Positions 6,209-43,590 of a stretch of DNA of 64,000 bases are shown here, piece after piece. The position numbers and the translations under genes were made by a program. Under the pieces are notes generated by a model. It searched no databases. It saw only the letters and a program-made list of their open reading frames with translations, and was not told the origin of the DNA. The DNA lies in contig JACPLW010000002.1 of assembly GCA_016186325.1 (NCBI GenBank), forward strand, positions 1,485 through 65,484, in the 5' to 3' direction. This DNA comes from Parcubacteria group bacterium (GTDB taxonomy: Bacteria > Patescibacteriota > Minisyncoccia > UBA10092). Within the stretch, counting starts at the first letter, position 1, and each line of letters opens with the position of its first letter.

Positions 6209-6394
6209 CTTTCCCTCCTTTTGGGCTTTTCTTAAGTTTTTTATTTATTTTAAAACTGATATAAAAGAGCTGATAAATATCATTTATCCCAGGAATGTTG
6301 GAAACCGAGCTTCCAACATGATAGATAACATTTATCAGGTCTTTTTAAAAATTTTCCCGCCTTTGGCGGGATCAGCCTCGGGCTGAAAAAATTT

Positions 6395-6425
6395 GGGGCG
6401 GCGAGACCGAGTGTCTCGCCGCCCC
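6395..6425 (-). terminator. intrinsic terminator of GC-rich gene 6453-7508
   Basis: GGGGCGGCGAGAC-CGAGT-GTCTCGCCGCCCC followed on the minus strand by CCAAATTTTTTC. Confidence 0.6.
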
Positions 6426-6452
6426 GCCGCCCCCGCCAATTGCGAAGGGTTA

Positions 6453-7508
6453 TTACTTCTTGCCGCGAGCGCGGTCGCGCTTCCAGTCGGAACTCTTATG
6501 AGTTCCGAACTCAGCGCCGAAGGTGCGCCGGTTCGCGGCGCCGCCTTCCAGCGAGCGCGCCTGGCTGACGCGCCCGGCGCTCTCCGCCTCACGCTTGACC
6601 ACGAGGCGAAGCCCCGCGACCGTATAGAACGTGAGAACTGCCCGCCGCTCCACCCAGTCAGGGTGGTCTTGCGGCAGATCCTTGCGGGCCCGGAAGTCCT
6701 CGAGGGCCTCCGAGCGGCACGTGCCGCAGCAGCGAATGCCGTAGGCGAGCGTCTTGCCCGCCTCCTCGATCTTGACCACTCCCGGAGGGATTTCTCCCGG
6801 AGGGATTTCCCACGGGAAGTTCTCCGCGTCGGCGCGGAGAAGCTCGCCGGCGACGATGTCGCCGCCGTCGCCCTTGCCGTGCTGACGGCGGTGAAGCTTG
6901 CCATCGTCTCCCCGCTCGAGGAGGAAACGCTGGGTCAGCTCCACCGGCTCGTTGTAACCGCGATGCCGCGGAGTGGCGCACGGCATCTTCTTGCCGGCCA
7001 CGAGCGGATCGGGATCCGGCTGCTCGGCGACCAGCTCCGCGATCGCCGCCTTCTCCGCGGCCAGCTCGGAAAGATAGTGCCTGAACATGGACCGGGTGAT
7101 CTCCACCCCGTCCTTGGCCTCGGCAGCAAACCGCTGCCGAATCCCACGGACCGTCGCCTGGCCCTTGTAGAGCCCGGCGTCCCAGTCCGCCTGCATCTCG
7201 CTGTCGAAGAGCAGCCGGTCGTCGTTGGCCGGCCTGCTGCTGCCGTCCTTCTCGGCCTTCTCGCGCTTGCCGCGCGAGATGATCTCGGCCGTCGCAGCCT
7301 CGATCTCAGCCACGGTCACGTCGGCCGGCATCCGCGGCTTGACCACCTCCGAGGCGGCCCACACCGCGAAACCGAGCGACCACCCCTGCTTCTCGGCGAT
7401 ACGCTTGAGCGCCTCGATGACGCCCTGCTGGCTGAACCGCTTCTTGTCATCCGCTGCTACAACTATCTTCCTGGGCTTGGCCATGATTGGCCTCCGTTGT
7501 CCCGCCAA
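6453..7508 (-). CDS. hypothetical protein (GC-rich island gene, no recognisable family)
   Basis: 351-aa ORF; SD ACGGAGG 7 nt before ATG; strongly GC-rich unlike its flanks; tandem 15-bp duplication encodes PGEIPPGEIP; own consensus promoter and terminator. Confidence 0.5.
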   Translation of the reverse strand: MAGQRRPIMAKPRKIVVAADDKKRFSQQGVIEALKRIAEKQGWSLGFAVWAASEVVKPRMPADVTVAEIEAATAEIISRGKREKAEKDGSSRPANDDRLLFDSEMQADWDAGLYKGQATVRGIRQRFAAEAKDGVEITRSMFRHYLSELAAEKAAIAELVAEQPDPDPLVAGKKMPCATPRHRGYNEPVELTQRFLLERGDDGKLHRRQHGKGDGGDIVAGELLRADAENFPWEIPPGEIPPGVVKIEEAGKTLAYGIRCCGTCRSEALEDFRARKDLPQDHPDWVERRAVLTFYTVAGLRLVVKREAESAGRVSQARSLEGGAANRRTFGAEFGTHKSSDWKRDRARGKK

Positions 7509-7594
7509 AGGCAGGGACTTTTGTATTGGTTGTCGCTCTTGAGGGCCGTTATTGGCCTCTTGAGCTTAAACCCTGTTTAGGAACTATTAACCAC

Positions 7595-7622
7595 ATTATA
7601 TCAAATATACAGAATATGTCAA
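7595..7622 (-). promoter_or_regulatory. consensus sigma70 promoter (TTGACA-16-TATAAT) driving GC-rich gene 6453-7508
   Basis: Minus strand reads TTGACAtattctgtatatttgaTATAAT. Confidence 0.6.
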
Positions 7623-7648
7623 GTACCTACTTATGCCGGCAGGTAGGC

Positions 7649-7677
7649 TTGACAATATAGCTAAAAAGGCGTACTAT
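7649..7677 (+). promoter_or_regulatory. sigma70-like promoter (TTGACA-17-TACTAT) for the NUDIX gene, divergent from the previous promoter
   Basis: TTGACAatatagctaaaaaggcgTACTAT; the two divergent -35 boxes sit in an inverted repeat TGTCAAGTACCTAC / GTAGGCTTGACA. Confidence 0.5.
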
Positions 7678-14044: not shown

Positions 14045-14185
14045 CGACTTTACCATAGGAACTATTCTGCAGTGATCATATAGTGTATTTCAAAAGTTAC
14101 AACTTAAGAACCGATCGGAAATTAAGTTGTTAAAAATTTAAATTATGTCAAAACCTATAAAAGTTAAAAAGACATTAAAATAATT

Positions 14186-14213
14186 GAGGGCCCTCGCATT
14201 GCGCGGGGGCCCT
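14186..14213. terminator. bidirectional terminator (GGGCCC stem) after gyrA and after GC-rich gene 14224-14715
   Basis: AGGGCCCTCGCATTGCGCGGGGGCCCT followed by T-rich tracts on both strands. Confidence 0.55.
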
Positions 14214-14223
14214 TATATTTATT

Positions 14224-14715
14224 TCACCTGAGTCGCTTCTGGCAGCAACCCAGATCCCCCATCCATCCGCACGACGTGCGGAGATGGGCGATCCTACTGC
14301 TGCTCGTCACCCTGGGAGGAGACTCCATGGTGATGAACGGCACCGGCTCGACTGCCGCCGGCTTCCGTGGAGGAAGAGCGACGAGCTTGACGCTCACCAG
14401 CCGGCGCGGCCTCTCCTTCCTGGGCAGTGCCCAAGAATGGTGGCCGTTCGAAACTGCGTCCGCGGCCACACCAGCGAAGGTTGCGCCGTGCGCAACCTCC
14501 TCGAGGATTTCGCGGCGCTCCTTGCCCTGACGGTTGTAACCGCAGAGCAACTTGAACGGATCGGAACTATCGAGATTAAGGATAGACCCACGACGCGTGA
14601 TGCCGCGTGAGGCCTTACTCCCGATGAGTTTCGCATCTCCTCGCCGCCGCCGTCTCGTGTCCAGGCGGCGGTTGTTGCCGTCGTCGTAGGTGTTCCTGAA
14701 CCGCCCAAATTGCAT
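14224..14715 (-). CDS. hypothetical protein (GC-rich island gene)
   Basis: 163 aa; strong SD GAAGGAGGAGG 5 nt before ATG; Arg-rich; no recognisable family. Confidence 0.45.
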   Translation of the reverse strand: MQFGRFRNTYDDGNNRRLDTRRRRRGDAKLIGSKASRGITRRGSILNLDSSDPFKLLCGYNRQGKERREILEEVAHGATFAGVAADAVSNGHHSWALPRKERPRRLVSVKLVALPPRKPAAVEPVPFITMESPPRVTSSSRIAHLRTSCGWMGDLGCCQKRLR

Positions 14716-14750
14716 CTTCGCCTCCTCCTTCTTCTTTATTTAAAAAAACA

Positions 14751-14773
14751 GGGGGGGGTCGAACCGCCCCCCT
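14751..14773 (-). terminator. intrinsic terminator between the two GC-rich genes
   Basis: Minus strand GGGGGGCGGTTCGACCCCCCCC followed by TGTTTTTTT. Confidence 0.6.
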
Positions 14774-14779
14774 CGGATC

Positions 14780-15034
14780 CTAGACGACGACGCGCTTCGC
14801 GCTCGACGCGTGGAGCTCGTCGAGCGCCGCCTGGGTGAGGTTCTTGCGGACCCACATGTGGGCTCCGCAGAAGAGCGGCCGCACGCCCGGACGGCGCGCC
14901 TTCGTCGCGCGCTCGCCGCCGTTGCCCCGCTTCTGACGGCGGGGGTTGTCGCAATCGGCGACGCGGCACGACGCCTTGAAATGCGCGAGCCACTCTTCGC
15001 GAGGTGGAATGACGGCCACGATTTCGTAGCCCAT
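14780..15034 (-). CDS. hypothetical protein (GC-rich island gene)
   Basis: 84 aa; SD AAAGGAGAGAGG before ATG; Cys/His-containing. Confidence 0.45.
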   Translation of the reverse strand: MGYEIVAVIPPREEWLAHFKASCRVADCDNPRRQKRGNGGERATKARRPGVRPLFCGAHMWVRKNLTQAALDELHASSAKRVVV

Positions 15035-15109
15035 GGTCCTCTCTCCTTTTGCCCCGCAACTGCAGGGCTTGTAAGAGTTTCGTGAAAGAACGGTTAACTA
15101 TGCTTAATT

Positions 15110-19795: not shown

Positions 19796-19866
19796 AGCGG
19801 GTAGGGGGAATCGAACCCCCGTCATTAGCTTGGAAAGCTAAGGTAATTCCATTATACGATACCCGC
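19796..19866 (-). tRNA. tRNA-Gly (anticodon UCC)
   Basis: Minus-strand cloverleaf; acceptor GCGGGTA/TACCCGC; anticodon loop TTTCCAA; T-arm GGGGG TTCGATT CCCCC. Confidence 0.75.
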
Positions 19867-19921
19867 CTTCGTCCCGCCTCGGCGGGACTTCGGCGGGGCA
19901 AGCCCGCCAAAACTAAAGCCA

Positions 19922-22295: not shown

Positions 22296-22443
22296 AAAAC
22301 AAAAATAGCACCTGGTGCTATTTTTGTAAAGTGAGCGGGCCGCCTCGTCCGCCAACAAGGTTGGCGAGACGAGCGAGACATTGCACGCCCCTCCTTCGCC
22401 CCGCTTTGCGGGGCTTCGGACGGGCAAGCGTTAGAACTTGTTT
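22296..22443 (-). repeat. ~150-bp promoter-bearing repeat, copy 1 (family G)
   Basis: About 95 percent identical to 24361-24509; contains terminator-like hairpin AAAAATAGCACCWGGTGCTATTTTT, -35-like TTTACA and the GTGCAATGTC motif. Confidence 0.7.
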
Positions 22444-24360: not shown

Positions 24361-24509
24361 AAAACAAAAATAGCACCAGGTGCTATTTTTGTAAAGTGAG
24401 CGGGCCGCCTCGTCCGCCAACAAGGTTGGCGAGACGAGCGAGACACTGCACAACCCTCCTTCGCCCCGCTTTGCGGGGCTTCGGACGGACAAGCGTTAGA
24501 ACCTGTTTT
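24361..24509 (-). repeat. ~150-bp promoter-bearing repeat, copy 2 (family G)
   Basis: See copy 1; a partial copy lacking two internal hairpin modules lies at 23996-24045. Confidence 0.7.
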
Positions 24510-34840: not shown

Positions 34841-35602
34841 TTATTCCGTTTTACCCTCAATTTTTTCAGGTCGGCATTTCCACAACATTTCAAATATTTG
34901 ACGCAAGGTTTTAGCCACATCCGGATTTTGCATAAAAACTCCTTGCATATGTCGAAGTGAAAATATCTGAATAAAATCATCACCGATTTCTATGGAAGAA
35001 TCGCTAAAATAATCTTTCGGATCCAGATATTTCATAGCCCATCCGAAATAACTCTCTCGCCCCTTATACCACGAAAGCGAAGGGTCATTCGGTGTCATGC
35101 CCCGAAGTTTAATGCCGGCTTTTTTGCAATCCTCATTCCATTGATGAAATATTTCCTGCATTTCAGGCGAAATATTTTCAGTTTCCCGCGCATAAAATCC
35201 GAGGATTTCCTGGCCGGCCATTCGTTTAACCGATTCGGTTATCATGTTTTTAATTCCTCGCTCGCCCTCATAATAGAGTGTTTTAAATTGCGGGCCGGTT
35301 TTATCTGCCATTGCCATAAGTTGAGGTAAAACACTTTTTGAAAGATTAAGGCGTTCTTCCGCTTCTGCAAAAAACTCATCAGGAGATTTTGCAATATATA
35401 GCTTTTTTCGTGTTCTGGGGATTTTTAACGCAAGACCCTTGTTTATAAGATTTTCAAGAATGACATATGTCGTGGGCCGCTTAACTTGCGCCTGATCAGC
35501 AATCATTTGAGCAGAACCGCGCCCAAATTGAACTAAAGCCATGTATACTTTAGCTTCTTTTTCATCAAGTCCTAAATTTTTTAACGCTTCTTCAATTTTC
35601 AT
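34841..35602 (-). CDS. TrmB-family transcriptional regulator
   Basis: N-terminal winged HTH LDEKEAKVYMALVQFGRGSAQMIADQAQVKRPTTYVILENL. Confidence 0.75.
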   Translation of the reverse strand: MKIEEALKNLGLDEKEAKVYMALVQFGRGSAQMIADQAQVKRPTTYVILENLINKGLALKIPRTRKKLYIAKSPDEFFAEAEERLNLSKSVLPQLMAMADKTGPQFKTLYYEGERGIKNMITESVKRMAGQEILGFYARETENISPEMQEIFHQWNEDCKKAGIKLRGMTPNDPSLSWYKGRESYFGWAMKYLDPKDYFSDSSIEIGDDFIQIFSLRHMQGVFMQNPDVAKTLRQIFEMLWKCRPEKIEGKTE

Positions 35603-35732: not shown

Positions 35733-35761
35733 TTGACATAATCACAAATAAATGCTATACT
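35733..35761 (+). promoter_or_regulatory. consensus sigma70 promoter (TTGACA-17-TATACT) at the start of a GC-rich island
   Basis: TTGACAtaatcacaaataaatgcTATACT; ~120-nt GC-rich leader before the first SD. Confidence 0.65.
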
Positions 35762-35889: not shown

Positions 35890-36180
35890 ATGGATAAACG
35901 GCACTGCTACCTTTCAGTAGCAGGCTGGCGCTACCCGCGTCATACCATCATTGATGGAAATGTCATCATGATGGAAGTGGCGATGGGAAGCTGCCAACAC
36001 TGTCCTACTTGCTCTCGGCGAGTAGAGATGGTGTCATCTCGGCTTCGGGGTACCAACTCCAAGTGGAGTTGGGAGGGGTTCGGTAACGGACTTTACCTCA
36101 AAGTCGAGATGCCCGATGACGCTGAACAAGTAGAACAATACTTGTCTCGGCTAATCGGAGTCTCTGTCTGGCTCAGATAG
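35890..36180 (+). CDS. hypothetical protein (GC-rich island ORF 1)
   Basis: 96 aa; SD AAGGAGGTGA 4 nt before ATG; CxxC..C motif. Confidence 0.45.
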   Translation: MDKRHCYLSVAGWRYPRHTIIDGNVIMMEVAMGSCQHCPTCSRRVEMVSSRLRGTNSKWSWEGFGNGLYLKVEMPDDAEQVEQYLSRLIGVSVWLR

Positions 36181-36352: not shown

Positions 36353-36418
36353 GGTCGAGCAAAAAACCGCTCGACCTCCCACCAAAGTTTTTGAAGCTTT
36401 CGAAAATTTTGGTGGGGG
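36353..36418 (+). repeat. family-B structured module, copy 1
   Basis: GGTCGAGC..GCTCGACC hairpin, then CCCACCAAAGTTT..AAATTTTGGTGGG arms with a G.U pair on the plus strand. Confidence 0.6.
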
Positions 36419-36474
36419 AATAATGAAAGTTCTTTAATCAAGAAATAAAAAAGAAGAGGGGGTGAGGCCTTATT

Positions 36475-36717
36475 GTGGTGAAATTCATCGTTACATGCGA
36501 TTGGATTGTCTTCGGAGATCGTCCTTTTGGCGGCGACATGCACACAGATGTCGCTCGCCGAAACGGCATCCCGAAAACATCCGTCCGGGGCGGTGGACTC
36601 TCCGATCTGACAGAGCGCCGGATATTTGGGACATCGTATGGTTTCGGATCATACGATCCCGAAGCAATCCGAGCGCTTCTGCCAGATTGGCAGATCGCCG
36701 AGCCCTCTGACTACTAG
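36475..36717 (+). CDS. hypothetical protein (GC-rich island ORF 2, GTG start)
   Basis: 80 aa; SD AAGAAGAGGGGGTGAGG 7 nt upstream of GTG. Confidence 0.4.
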   Translation: MVKFIVTCDWIVFGDRPFGGDMHTDVARRNGIPKTSVRGGGLSDLTERRIFGTSYGFGSYDPEAIRALLPDWQIAEPSDY

Positions 36718-36747
36718 AACAAATCCAAAATGGAAGGAGGTGAGTGC

Positions 36748-36882
36748 ATGGTAGAGGACATGGAGTTTTTCTTCGAGGAAGACGACATCGACATCTCCTT
36801 CGAGGAACTCGGACTCTGCCCCCACTGCGGAGCGGCAGATGACGAGGGATGTGAGGGTAGTTGCCCCAGCTTTCTGGAGTAA
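36748..36882 (+). CDS. small acidic Cys-rich peptide (44 aa)
   Basis: SD GGAGGTGA 5 nt before ATG; MVEDMEFFFEEDDIDISFEELGLCPHCGAADDEGCEGSCPSFLE. Confidence 0.4.
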   Translation: MVEDMEFFFEEDDIDISFEELGLCPHCGAADDEGCEGSCPSFLE

Positions 36883-37026: not shown

Positions 37027-37107
37027 GGGTCGAGTGAAAAAAGAAATCTCGACCTCCTACCAAAGTTCTCAAAAAGTATTTTGAAAATTTTGGTAGTTTA
37101 TTTTTTT
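37027..37107 (+). terminator. family-B module copy 2 acting as intrinsic terminator
   Basis: GGGTCGAG..CTCGACC hairpin, then CTACCAAAG..TTTGGTAG stem followed by TTTATTTTTTT. Confidence 0.6.
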
Positions 37108-37242
37108 CTCTTTTTTAAGTGTTTGAAAAATTCGATTTGCCGCAATCGTTTTTTTGCTTCGGCAAGAGTTTTGTATGAACCGAAAGAACGGCCGGTAGTT
37201 TCTGATAAAACAACATACTTGCCTTTTATTTTTTTAATCATG

Positions 37243-43465: not shown

Positions 43466-43488
43466 GCAACTGCGGGATGGCAAAACTA
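43466..43488. repeat. family-D palindrome CTATTGATGTCGGACATCAATAG
   Basis: Perfect 11-bp arms; related copies at 59145-59166, 60407-60429, 63332-63352. Confidence 0.6.
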
Positions 43489-43590
43489 TTGATGTCGGAC
43501 ATCAATAGTGGGTGTTGACAGCAAAGTTTAAAGTTATATGCTATGAGCATAAACAGAACTTTAAAATTTTAAGAGAGAAGGGTCTCTGAA

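Follow-up and report, generated by a model that had tools for sequence, protein, structure and literature searches.

The window analyzed here, the whole 64-kb stretch of contig JACPLW010000002.1 from a Parcubacteria group bacterium, is AT-rich (42.7% GC) and of Patescibacteria type, with 15 scattered tRNA genes and housekeeping genes that include GyrA, UvrD, RsmA, and HtrA. Two islands within it, A on the plus strand and B on the minus strand, are richer in GC (0.52 and 0.56 vs 0.35–0.45 in the flanks). Each starts with a consensus sigma-70 promoter, followed by a non-coding leader and small open reading frames (ORFs) with strong Shine-Dalgarno (SD) sequences. The islands carry four copies of a two-part module (A1, A2, B1, and B2), in which a variable GC hairpin is followed directly by a long hairpin with conserved arms. 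We find that this is a conserved, covarying, sense-favoring hairpin found in polycistronic arrays, at the boundaries of their units, and at the tips of rRNA helices, and we examine what it may do there.

Island A is led by a promoter at 35733..35761 (+; TTGACA, 17 nt, TATACT, TG extension; 11/12). It comprises ORF 1 (96 aa, strong SD, 35890..36180, +), copy A1, ORF 2 (80 aa, 36475..36717, +), which starts 56 nt 3' of A1, the Cys-rich ORF 3 (44–50 aa, 36730..36882, +), and copy A2. Island B is led by a promoter at 61800..61828 (−; TTGACA, 17 nt, TATAAT; 12/12) that is kept in the related loci L092, L065, L216, L151, L121, and L198. A GC-rich, non-coding leader of ~740 nt (61058..61794, −), conserved in relatives and without a match in Rfam, precedes a 32-aa mini-ORF (MTKYHVVGGVVY..., 60959..61057, −), copy B1, a 98-aa ORF (60490..60786, −) starting 76 nt 3' of B1, copy B2, and a canonical intrinsic terminator ~50 nt past this last module (60289..60318, −). 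ORF 1 has homologues of ~33% identity in island-B-type arrays of other genomes, and the island-B-type arrays at L144, L216, and L151 contain one; a homologue of ORF 2 at L222 likewise follows a module. The 98-aa ORF has no counterpart in the orthologous islands of L092 and L065 and is present in L170 and L181. Pfam and PHROGs returned no family for the island ORFs or for the cargo ORFs of related arrays. A TrmB-family regulator gene lies divergent from island A (34841..35602, −; PF01978, 1.4e-14) and another directly upstream of island B (62182..62919, −), where the gene order is kept in ~10 relatives.

A first-pass annotation of this DNA had reported four module copies, and all four were confirmed. 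The pattern CCAAAGTTN{10,40}AAATTTTGG matched the window exactly four times (36382–36412 and 37060–37093 on the plus strand, 60376–60429 and 60869–60900 on the minus strand) and not at all in 100 dinucleotide shuffles of the window. A covariance model of the hairpin family recovered the same four copies and nothing else, scoring 48–62 bits in the sense and 29–41 bits in the antisense orientation. The layout of a GC hairpin and two arms described in that annotation holds in all four copies, with the GC hairpin weak in B2. The spacer spans 13–36 nt rather than the 15–35 nt given there, and A2 departs from the consensus (GTTC, GGTAGTT). The long hairpin has 19–22 bp and the consensus YCCCACCAAAGUUU...AAAUUUUGGYGGG. 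Sense RNA folds that include the GC hairpin reach −40.3, −28.0, −27.4, and −31.2 kcal/mol (z −7.9, −6.3, −3.1, and −5.8), and the antisense folds of the same copies, in the same order, −32.3, −28.2, −21.9, and −28.0 kcal/mol.

Copy A1 consists of a GC hairpin defined by RNA folding (GGTCGAGC...GCTCGACC, 36353..36376, +) and a long hairpin of 19 bp with a 3-nt loop and both a G.U and a U.G wobble (36377..36417, +; 61.6 bits; −40.3 kcal/mol and z −7.9 when folded with the GC hairpin). At the equivalent position in other copies the GC hairpin varies in sequence and keeps its pairing. In A2, a GC hairpin seen in the RNA fold (37027..37055, +) precedes a degenerate long hairpin (37057..37096, +; pattern, 48.4 bits, fold) with GTTC, one C.A mismatch, and GGTAG (GGTAGTT) as the right arm. 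A T-rich tract follows directly (37097..37125, +; TTTATTTTTTT), with T at 7 of the 8 positions right after the stem. A2 with this tract is the sole copy in the window with the look of an intrinsic terminator, and by its sequence it probably ends transcription of island A. Copy B1 has a GC hairpin recognized in the sequence (GGGGCGCTC atctc GAGTGCCCC, 60907..60929, −) and a long hairpin with an A.C mismatch adjoining the CC/GG core (60863..60908, −; pattern, 59.4 bits, fold). The long hairpin of B2 is extended in its distal part (60370..60437, −; pattern, 48.1 bits, fold). Upstream of it lies a weak hairpin region visible in sequence and fold (GGACA...TGTCC / CGAG..CTCG, 60438..60470, −), and this flank is kept in L170 and L181. 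In its long-loop orthologues in L092, L170, and L121, the inner stem carries compensatory changes as well as sense-strand wobbles. The earlier claim that the arms pair perfectly once G.U is allowed is true of A1 and B2 only, given the C.A of A2 and the A.C of B1 (ccctaCC/GGcgggg). The inner palindrome of B2 (60395–60420) is itself a member of a separate small palindrome family (AACTATTGATNNCGGANATCAATAGT), found in the window at 43484–43509, 60395–60420, and 63329–63354; one of the other two members lies within the RsmA coding sequence.

Four related copies are too few to carry an argument for action as RNA; that argument holds because the family could be enlarged to 57. A degenerate pattern scan gave 99 loci in 185,579 species genomes and at least 120 in metagenomes. 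Its output mixes chance matches with true copies, which we told apart by the extended consensus of the arms together with a GC hairpin upstream. We then trained a covariance model on 30 copies and ran it on 44 sources. Together, pattern scans and model yielded at least 57 distinct sense copies from genomes and metagenomes, of which 17/57 are divergent, fall outside the scan pattern, and were detected by the model only. Among the matches listed, true copies came only from Patescibacteria (records labelled Zambryskibacteria, Niyogibacteria, Paceibacterota, 'Saccharibacteria', and Patescibacteria group), and the nine loci that the pattern scan found in viral contigs (IMG/VR) included no true module. 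Copy density is low, with four per 64 kb in the window, all in the two islands, and one to four per related locus.

Two classes of look-alike, which make up many of the pattern matches from outside Patescibacteria, were left out of the counts: tRNA 3' ends with an encoded CCA and a trailing A/T palindrome, and alpha-proteobacterial permuted transfer-messenger RNA (tmRNA) genes. The palindrome CCACCAAA(A/G)TTT...AAATTTTGGTGG arises independently at such tRNA 3' ends, often at convergent tRNA genes (L020, L022, L026, L069, L087, L133, and others; Omnitrophota etc.), and also forms the intervening hairpin of permuted tmRNA genes in the alpha-proteobacterial loci L046 and L173. Rfam 15 holds no family for the module. 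Its gathering-threshold search of the window returned tRNAs only, a permissive search of both islands gave only chance matches of miRNA type (E ≥ 0.1), and the related loci yielded rRNA, tRNA, and tmRNA only. A search of the literature on integrons and cassettes or hairpin motifs in the Candidate Phyla Radiation (CPR) found nothing specific. The hairpin is a previously undescribed motif, absent from Rfam 15 and a variant of known processing, intervening-sequence (IVS), or repetitive extragenic palindromic (REP)-type hairpins.

The stem is a real helix. In the 30-copy alignment it comprises 20 pairs with 91.5% of cells paired, and eight pairs vary on both sides. The covariation score of 0.270 compares with 0.139 for shuffled alignments (0/500 reached 0.270) and 0.03–0.13 when the partners were slid by 1–3 columns. 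The divergent copies carry most weight here because the scan pattern fixed several columns. Among them, C9-G49 is replaced by U-A in three copies and C10-G48 by U-A in one, A8:Y50 appears as G-C in one, and G14.U44 as G-C in one. The compensatory changes that the first-pass annotation had proposed to look for are present.

Wobble pairs are distributed unevenly between the strands. Across the 57 copies we counted 879 Watson-Crick pairs, 141 G.U pairs on the sense strand, and 35 sense-strand A.C or C.A cells. The earlier description gave the arms a single G.U, always on the transcribed strand. That pair, 14-44 at AAAG/AUUU, is conserved (G.U 49, A-U 6, G-C 1, and A.C 0), and U19.G39 is a second conserved wobble. 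Wobbles confined to the sense strand also occur at pairs 5-53, 7-51, and 15-43, as they do at 19-39. By position, five agree with the strand bias and one disagrees. The rule is not absolute: pair 8-50 accounts for 24 of the 35 A.C cells (24/57 copies, B1 included), so that C-A on the transcribed strand, named beforehand as evidence against an RNA, does occur, at another pair than the wobble first described. Sense RNA was more stable than antisense in 34/37 copies (means −22.3 vs −16.6 kcal/mol). All copies lie sense to their neighbors, whether ORFs, tRNA-Lys, tmRNA, or 16S rRNA, in line with the expected correlation with the direction of transcription.

Related loci place the module repeatedly between small genes. 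In 28/54 copies an ORF with an SD sequence and a length of 30 aa or more begins 16–117 nt downstream in the sense orientation, compared with 9/54 in the antisense orientation. The order RsmA-TrmB-array-UvrD is conserved in ~10 relatives at roughly 70% protein identity, and island B relatives share the promoter, a conserved leader of 400–800 nt, and a conserved mini-ORF. The module that ends the array is conserved in place in all of them despite protein identities of only ~70%, and in island B, L092, and L130 the last module is followed by a separate canonical terminator. Array content varies: the 98-aa ORF is missing from L092, and in L065 a Cys-rich ORF takes its place. The cargo consists of diverse orphan ORFs, some starting with a signal peptide or lipobox. 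The loop type (short or long) is swapped between copies with identical flanks in L121 compared with L144 and L216.

In another type of array the module stands 3' of stable RNA genes. The L130 array reads tmRNA, hairpin and module, ORF, tRNA-Lys, hairpin and module, ORF, tRNA-Lys, hairpin and module, terminator. The L209 array is related to it with other ORFs, and both have modules 3' of the tRNA-Lys and tmRNA genes. At these loci (L130 1950–3541, −; L209 1–2050, +), small lipoprotein-like ORFs are interspersed with a tmRNA gene and near-identical repeats of a tRNA-Lys(UUU) gene, and in the leaders of some pre-tRNAs a stretch of 15 nt matches the tmRNA tag region (GCCTGGCAACAGAA).

Three further copies lie inside 16S rRNA genes, in sense orientation, in place of helix tips: h40 in L055 and L182, and the h9/h10 area in L172. 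Other genomes have short, ordinary helices at these places; the native helix has been replaced, and there is no target-site duplication. Such positions support action as RNA because only an RNA-compatible hairpin would be tolerated there. As a separate observation, the 3' end of the 16S gene of L055 (Paceibacterota; 6380–6440) reads ...GGTCGTGGAATAATTC where other bacteria read GGATCACCTCCTTA, so that the canonical anti-SD sequence appears to be missing.

A short motif accompanies many copies. GTTCTT occurs within 40 nt downstream of the module in 23/57 copies. GTTCTT(T) recurs a few nt upstream of SD sequences, after modules (e.g. window 36430–36436 and 60850–60844) and also ~12–25 nt past the −10 element of array promoters (window ~61786, L092 ~1488, L147 ~2190); AATCCCAA often precedes it.

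We hypothesize that the module is a cis-acting RNA hairpin that serves as a signal for stability and for processing by a double-strand RNase (RNase III/IVS-like) on the sense transcripts of GC-rich small-gene arrays, a reading that we favor tentatively and at a little under even odds. Its more general premise, that the module acts as RNA and not as a DNA site, had been put forward in the first-pass annotation and is supported, if not proven, by covariation, wobble bias, sense orientation, and the 16S copies. The stem has a base rich in GC (CCCACC/GGUGGG) below a body rich in A and U, and it holds the two conserved G.U wobbles. RNase III substrates span two helical turns, which the ~20-bp stem fits. 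We envisage that a double-strand-specific endoribonuclease, of the RNase III family or a dedicated enzyme, would cut this near-perfect two-turn helix, as happens to the intercistronic hairpins of phage T7 and to intervening sequences in rRNA, and so split the polycistronic transcript into units. The GC hairpin would remain and shield the 3' end of the upstream RNA (mRNA, tRNA-Lys, or tmRNA), and the downstream RNA would begin a few tens of nt before the GUUCUUU/SD/AUG region; the occurrence of GTTCTT after both modules and array promoters fits a module that creates a new 5' end. Grafted onto a 16S helix tip, the hairpin would behave as an IVS-like expansion. The near-invariant arms and retained wobbles imply a sequence-specific, trans-acting reader.

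Several points weigh against this proposal. It does not account for the A.C mismatch at pair 8-50. Generic RNase III substrates need no conserved sequence, and the conservation seen here points to a specific reader. Because the copies share descent, the wobble and pair counts are not independent events. The variable cassette content of the arrays could also be explained by a site acting at the DNA level, and it might conceivably be the sense DNA strand, instead of RNA, that folds. Copy A2 and four other copies (of 57) carry a U-tract and are probably terminating, in which case function may depend on context.

Among the alternatives, the one that survives best is a selfish palindromic element, akin to miniature inverted-repeat transposable elements (MITEs), REPs, Rickettsia palindromic elements (RPEs), or IVSs, that spreads at the DNA level and is kept only where its sense transcript folds harmlessly, with no host function. 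We consider it unlikely. It would account for one sequence in unrelated contexts (different 16S helices per lineage, tRNA/tmRNA arrays, and ORF arrays), for loop types exchanged between copies with identical flanks (L121 vs L144 and L216), and for the company of other small palindromic repeat families in the same window. A spreading element sits poorly with only four copies in 64 kb, confined to both islands, and one to four per related locus, and with 16S copies that replace the native helix rather than interrupt it and leave no target-site duplication. No transposase was found among the neighboring ORFs scanned. Terminal modules are, moreover, positionally conserved at ~70% protein identity with near-invariant arms, which points to purifying selection.

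Recombination offers a second alternative, in which the folded sense DNA strand is an attC-like site where some recombinase inserts and excises small-gene cassettes in integron-like arrays; we regard this as improbable. The arrays do resemble integrons in being co-oriented, promoter-led, and made of tiny orphan ORFs at a GC content of 0.52–0.56 against 0.35–0.45 in the flanks, with a conserved imperfect hairpin of variable loop at every unit boundary. The window, L092, and L065 differ from one another in content, as do L130 and L209 (at ~70% protein identity, too diverged for breakpoints). ORF families cross array types, as the homologue of island A ORF 1 in island-B-type arrays illustrates, and strand asymmetry is likewise a property of attC. 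Yet no integrase adjoins any array start in the array neighborhoods, which were the regions searched; TrmB-like genes, structured leaders, or tmRNA stand there. The sole nearby tyrosine recombinase (L147) is an AT-rich host gene of XerC/D type with its own promoter, 3' of the array. The arms YCCCACCAAAGTTT / AAATTTTGGYGGG lack RYYYAAC/GTTRRRY cores in either orientation, and the favored strand is the coding strand, following transcription in both oppositely oriented islands. Recombination sites inside 16S rRNA genes would be dangerous, and ORF homologues shared between arrays are only 33–50% identical, which indicates that they are not recent transfers. A broader version, to which we likewise give little credence, is a Patescibacteria-specific cassette system that would shuffle small accessory genes, in some cases accompanied by a tRNA-Lys of their own, among promoter-led arrays at loci linked to tmRNA or TrmB, through the hairpin as a folded sense-strand DNA site or through an RNA intermediate. 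If it were true, the 16S copies would be by-products of the same activity, and the arrays an integron-like platform without IntI or attC homology.

The possibility that the module is an intrinsic terminator or attenuator between cistrons, one of the options first raised for it, is rejected for most copies and appears quite improbable as a general function. The stem base is GC-rich, A2 runs into TTTATTTTTTT and ends island A, and in L109 and L086 the stem is followed directly by U-rich GUUCUUU(U). Only 5/57 copies, A2 among them, have at least six T in the eight positions right after the stem, and canonical terminators lie past the last module of arrays; the module is therefore not a generic terminator. 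Some copies, moreover, sit within 16S rRNA genes or separate tRNA genes from ORFs that are transcribed with them, and a terminator scan of the islands did not flag the modules.

Somewhat less probable still is a permuted tRNA-acceptor mimic resembling a two-piece tmRNA precursor. Here (U/C)CC-A-CCA would be the 3' acceptor end, Y-GGG the 5' end, and the GC hairpin the T-arm, with RNase P and 3' trimming excising the A/U loop. The left arm does resemble the 3' end of tmRNA or tRNA-Ala, U5.G53 (19/57 copies) would equal G3.U70, and the base facing the 'discriminator' A8 may be either U or C. True permuted alpha-proteobacterial tmRNA genes (L046, L173) fit the same pattern including the G.U, and tmRNA and tRNA-Lys genes occur in the arrays. 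However, in divergent copies the 'CCA' changes together with the opposite arm, which compensates (GTCA/TGAC, ATCA/TGAT(C), ACTA/TAGT), and one copy has G8-C50, making a plain helix. The GC hairpins have tetraloops and stems of 7–10 bp, unlike T-arms, the acceptor-like stem would have only 3–6 bp, and ARAGORN and Rfam detected no tRNA or tmRNA at the modules. Finally, a double-stranded DNA operator for the neighboring TrmB-like regulators, suggested by the inverted repeat and by TrmB-like genes flanking both islands and arrays in L005, L012, and L147, has next to no likelihood given half-site spacings of 13 to >50 bp, sites at ORF 3' ends far from promoters, asymmetric wobbles and compensatory changes that mark a folded single strand, and copies within 16S rRNA.

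Two further readings were tried and dropped. As a promoter (TTGGTG or TTGAAA as −35 with a −10 downstream), the module shows a spacing that, judged by inspection, is inconsistent between copies, and a promoter scanner run on the islands placed promoters at the island starts only. An alternative hairpin between the 3' YGGGR of the right arm and a downstream UCCCR (G.U allowed) is available in 47/54 copies, which does not improve on the mean of 45.6 for random 30-mers. By a count made by eye, CCC lies within 16 nt downstream in ~22/54 copies, against ~12% on a rough, uncomputed estimate from composition, and L132 offers a few compensatory cases for this pairing.

The surroundings of the islands hold other candidate elements. 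The two TrmB-family genes are the only ones in the annotated regions of the window, each adjoining one island, and TrmB-like genes also lie upstream of module arrays at unrelated loci (L005 2092–2820, L012 3234–3974, L147 6959–7693); from this arrangement, TrmB-like regulators probably control the array promoters. A perfect 12/12 sigma-70 promoter at 61999–62027 (+) points toward the TrmB gene of the minus strand, entering it at its 3' end, and may drive antisense transcription. The GC-rich island B leader, of 400–800 nt (window 61058–61794, −; L092 1475–2093; L065 4847–5238; L216 1676–2463; L151 3052–3721; L121 1498–2304, −), has invariant blocks such as GGAACAAATGGATGTGAGGTAATAAATCGCATATCGCAATTGTACCTCCTCCGTTCC and CTCGCCTCTCCACTAAAGCCC...GGGCTTTAGCGGGGAG and may be a new large structured RNA. 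An insertion of ~200 nt in the leaders of L216 (about 1880–2080), L121, and L198 (alignment columns 231–400) ends with a T-arm-like GAGCGGTTCGATTCCGCTC, and ARAGORN found no tRNA in it. Downstream of the leader, a mini-protein of 24–32 aa (MT.Y.VV.G.VY..R...A) is encoded in the window (60959–61057, −), L092 (2091–2168), and L065 (5236–5310). Judged from the substitutions between genomes, many of which are synonymous, the island B mini-ORF is a genuine coding gene.

Additional repeats and islands are present. A GC-rich nested hairpin repeat (GCCCGCCTTCG..CCGCC..GGCGG..CTTCGGCGGGGC) occurs in the window at 19862–19901, 61142–61181, 22387–22427, and 24454–24478. Within the island B leader it is present in the window, L092, and L065 and missing from L216, L151, L121, and L198, a distribution that looks like insertion or deletion of a small element. 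A 148-nt unit is repeated at 22296–22443 and 24361–24508 with 96% identity; its minus strand reads GC hairpins, a different A/U-rich palindrome (ACAAAAATAGCACCNGGTGCTATTTTTGT), GTTCTTTAATC, and an SD-preceded ORF, a module-like architecture with another hairpin sequence. Two more islands of ~58% GC lack the module. One (~6250–7650) lies between beta-lactamase-fold/RNase J-like and Nudix-like genes and contains a 351-aa ORF without a Pfam match, and the other (~14100–15100) lies between the GyrA and CCA-adding enzyme genes.

The hairpin is unusual in its sequence conservation across Patescibacteria and in its triple context of mRNA arrays, tRNA/tmRNA arrays, and 16S rRNA. Its occurrence between cistrons of accessory genes, behind tRNA and tmRNA genes, and as short insertions in 16S rRNA points to a single dedicated reader, which would be an RNase or an RNA-binding protein. 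In the Patescibacteria (CPR), which are uncultured, next to nothing has been learned about RNA processing. The hairpin also provides a searchable marker for GC-rich, TrmB-linked arrays of tiny orphan genes, which are not the same even in close relatives and may encode functions in host interaction or defense. CPR rRNA genes contain many uncharacterized short, ORF-less insertions at helix tips that are presumed to be IVSs cleaved by RNase III (PMC11270868), and the hairpin offers a handle on them.

The module shares features with several known systems and coincides with none of them. It recalls the intervening hairpin of permuted (two-piece) tmRNA (...CC-A-CCA-AAGUUU...AAAUUUU-GGU-GGG...), which has the same G.U and an upstream hairpin (the T-arm) and is excised during maturation; in the module, by contrast, the 'CCA' covaries as an ordinary helix, and there is no T-loop or tRNA-like domain. 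Integron attC sites and chromosomal cassette arrays likewise join co-oriented small orphan ORFs behind one promoter, with content varying between relatives, and have an imperfect boundary hairpin with a variable loop and strand-specific folding. The arrays described here differ in having no IntI, attI, or R''/R' cores, in favoring the coding strand, and in sharing their hairpin with rRNA genes and with sites after tRNA and tmRNA genes. REP sequences with their bacterial interspersed mosaic elements (BIMEs) and Correia elements are also imperfect palindromes at gene 3' ends in operons, transcribed and strand-asymmetric; they can stabilize upstream mRNA, and RNase III cuts those of the Correia type. 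Both kinds are specific to a species and reach high copy numbers, and REPs are moved by REP-associated tyrosine transposases (RAYTs), whereas the module occurs in few copies, only in special arrays and rRNA, is kept across distant lineages, and has no associated transposase.

Closest to our preferred reading are the IVSs of rRNA (23S of Salmonella, Leptospira, and Coxiella) and the RNase III sites of T7 early mRNA. These are extended, near-perfect hairpins of about two turns or more that replace an rRNA helix tip or sit between cistrons, occur sporadically among lineages, and leave the upstream RNA with a 3' hairpin. The corresponding structure is found here: a stem of 19–22 bp at an rRNA helix tip (h40 in L055 and L182; the h9/h10 area in L172) and in intercistronic positions in arrays. 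What sets the module apart is that one conserved sequence, with a cleavage that is predicted here, recurs in two settings, inside 16S rRNA (at h40 and in the h9/h10 area) and in the intervals between mRNAs, tRNAs, and tmRNA. At ~40–70 nt the module is also much shorter than classical IVSs, and its arms are conserved across classes of Patescibacteria.

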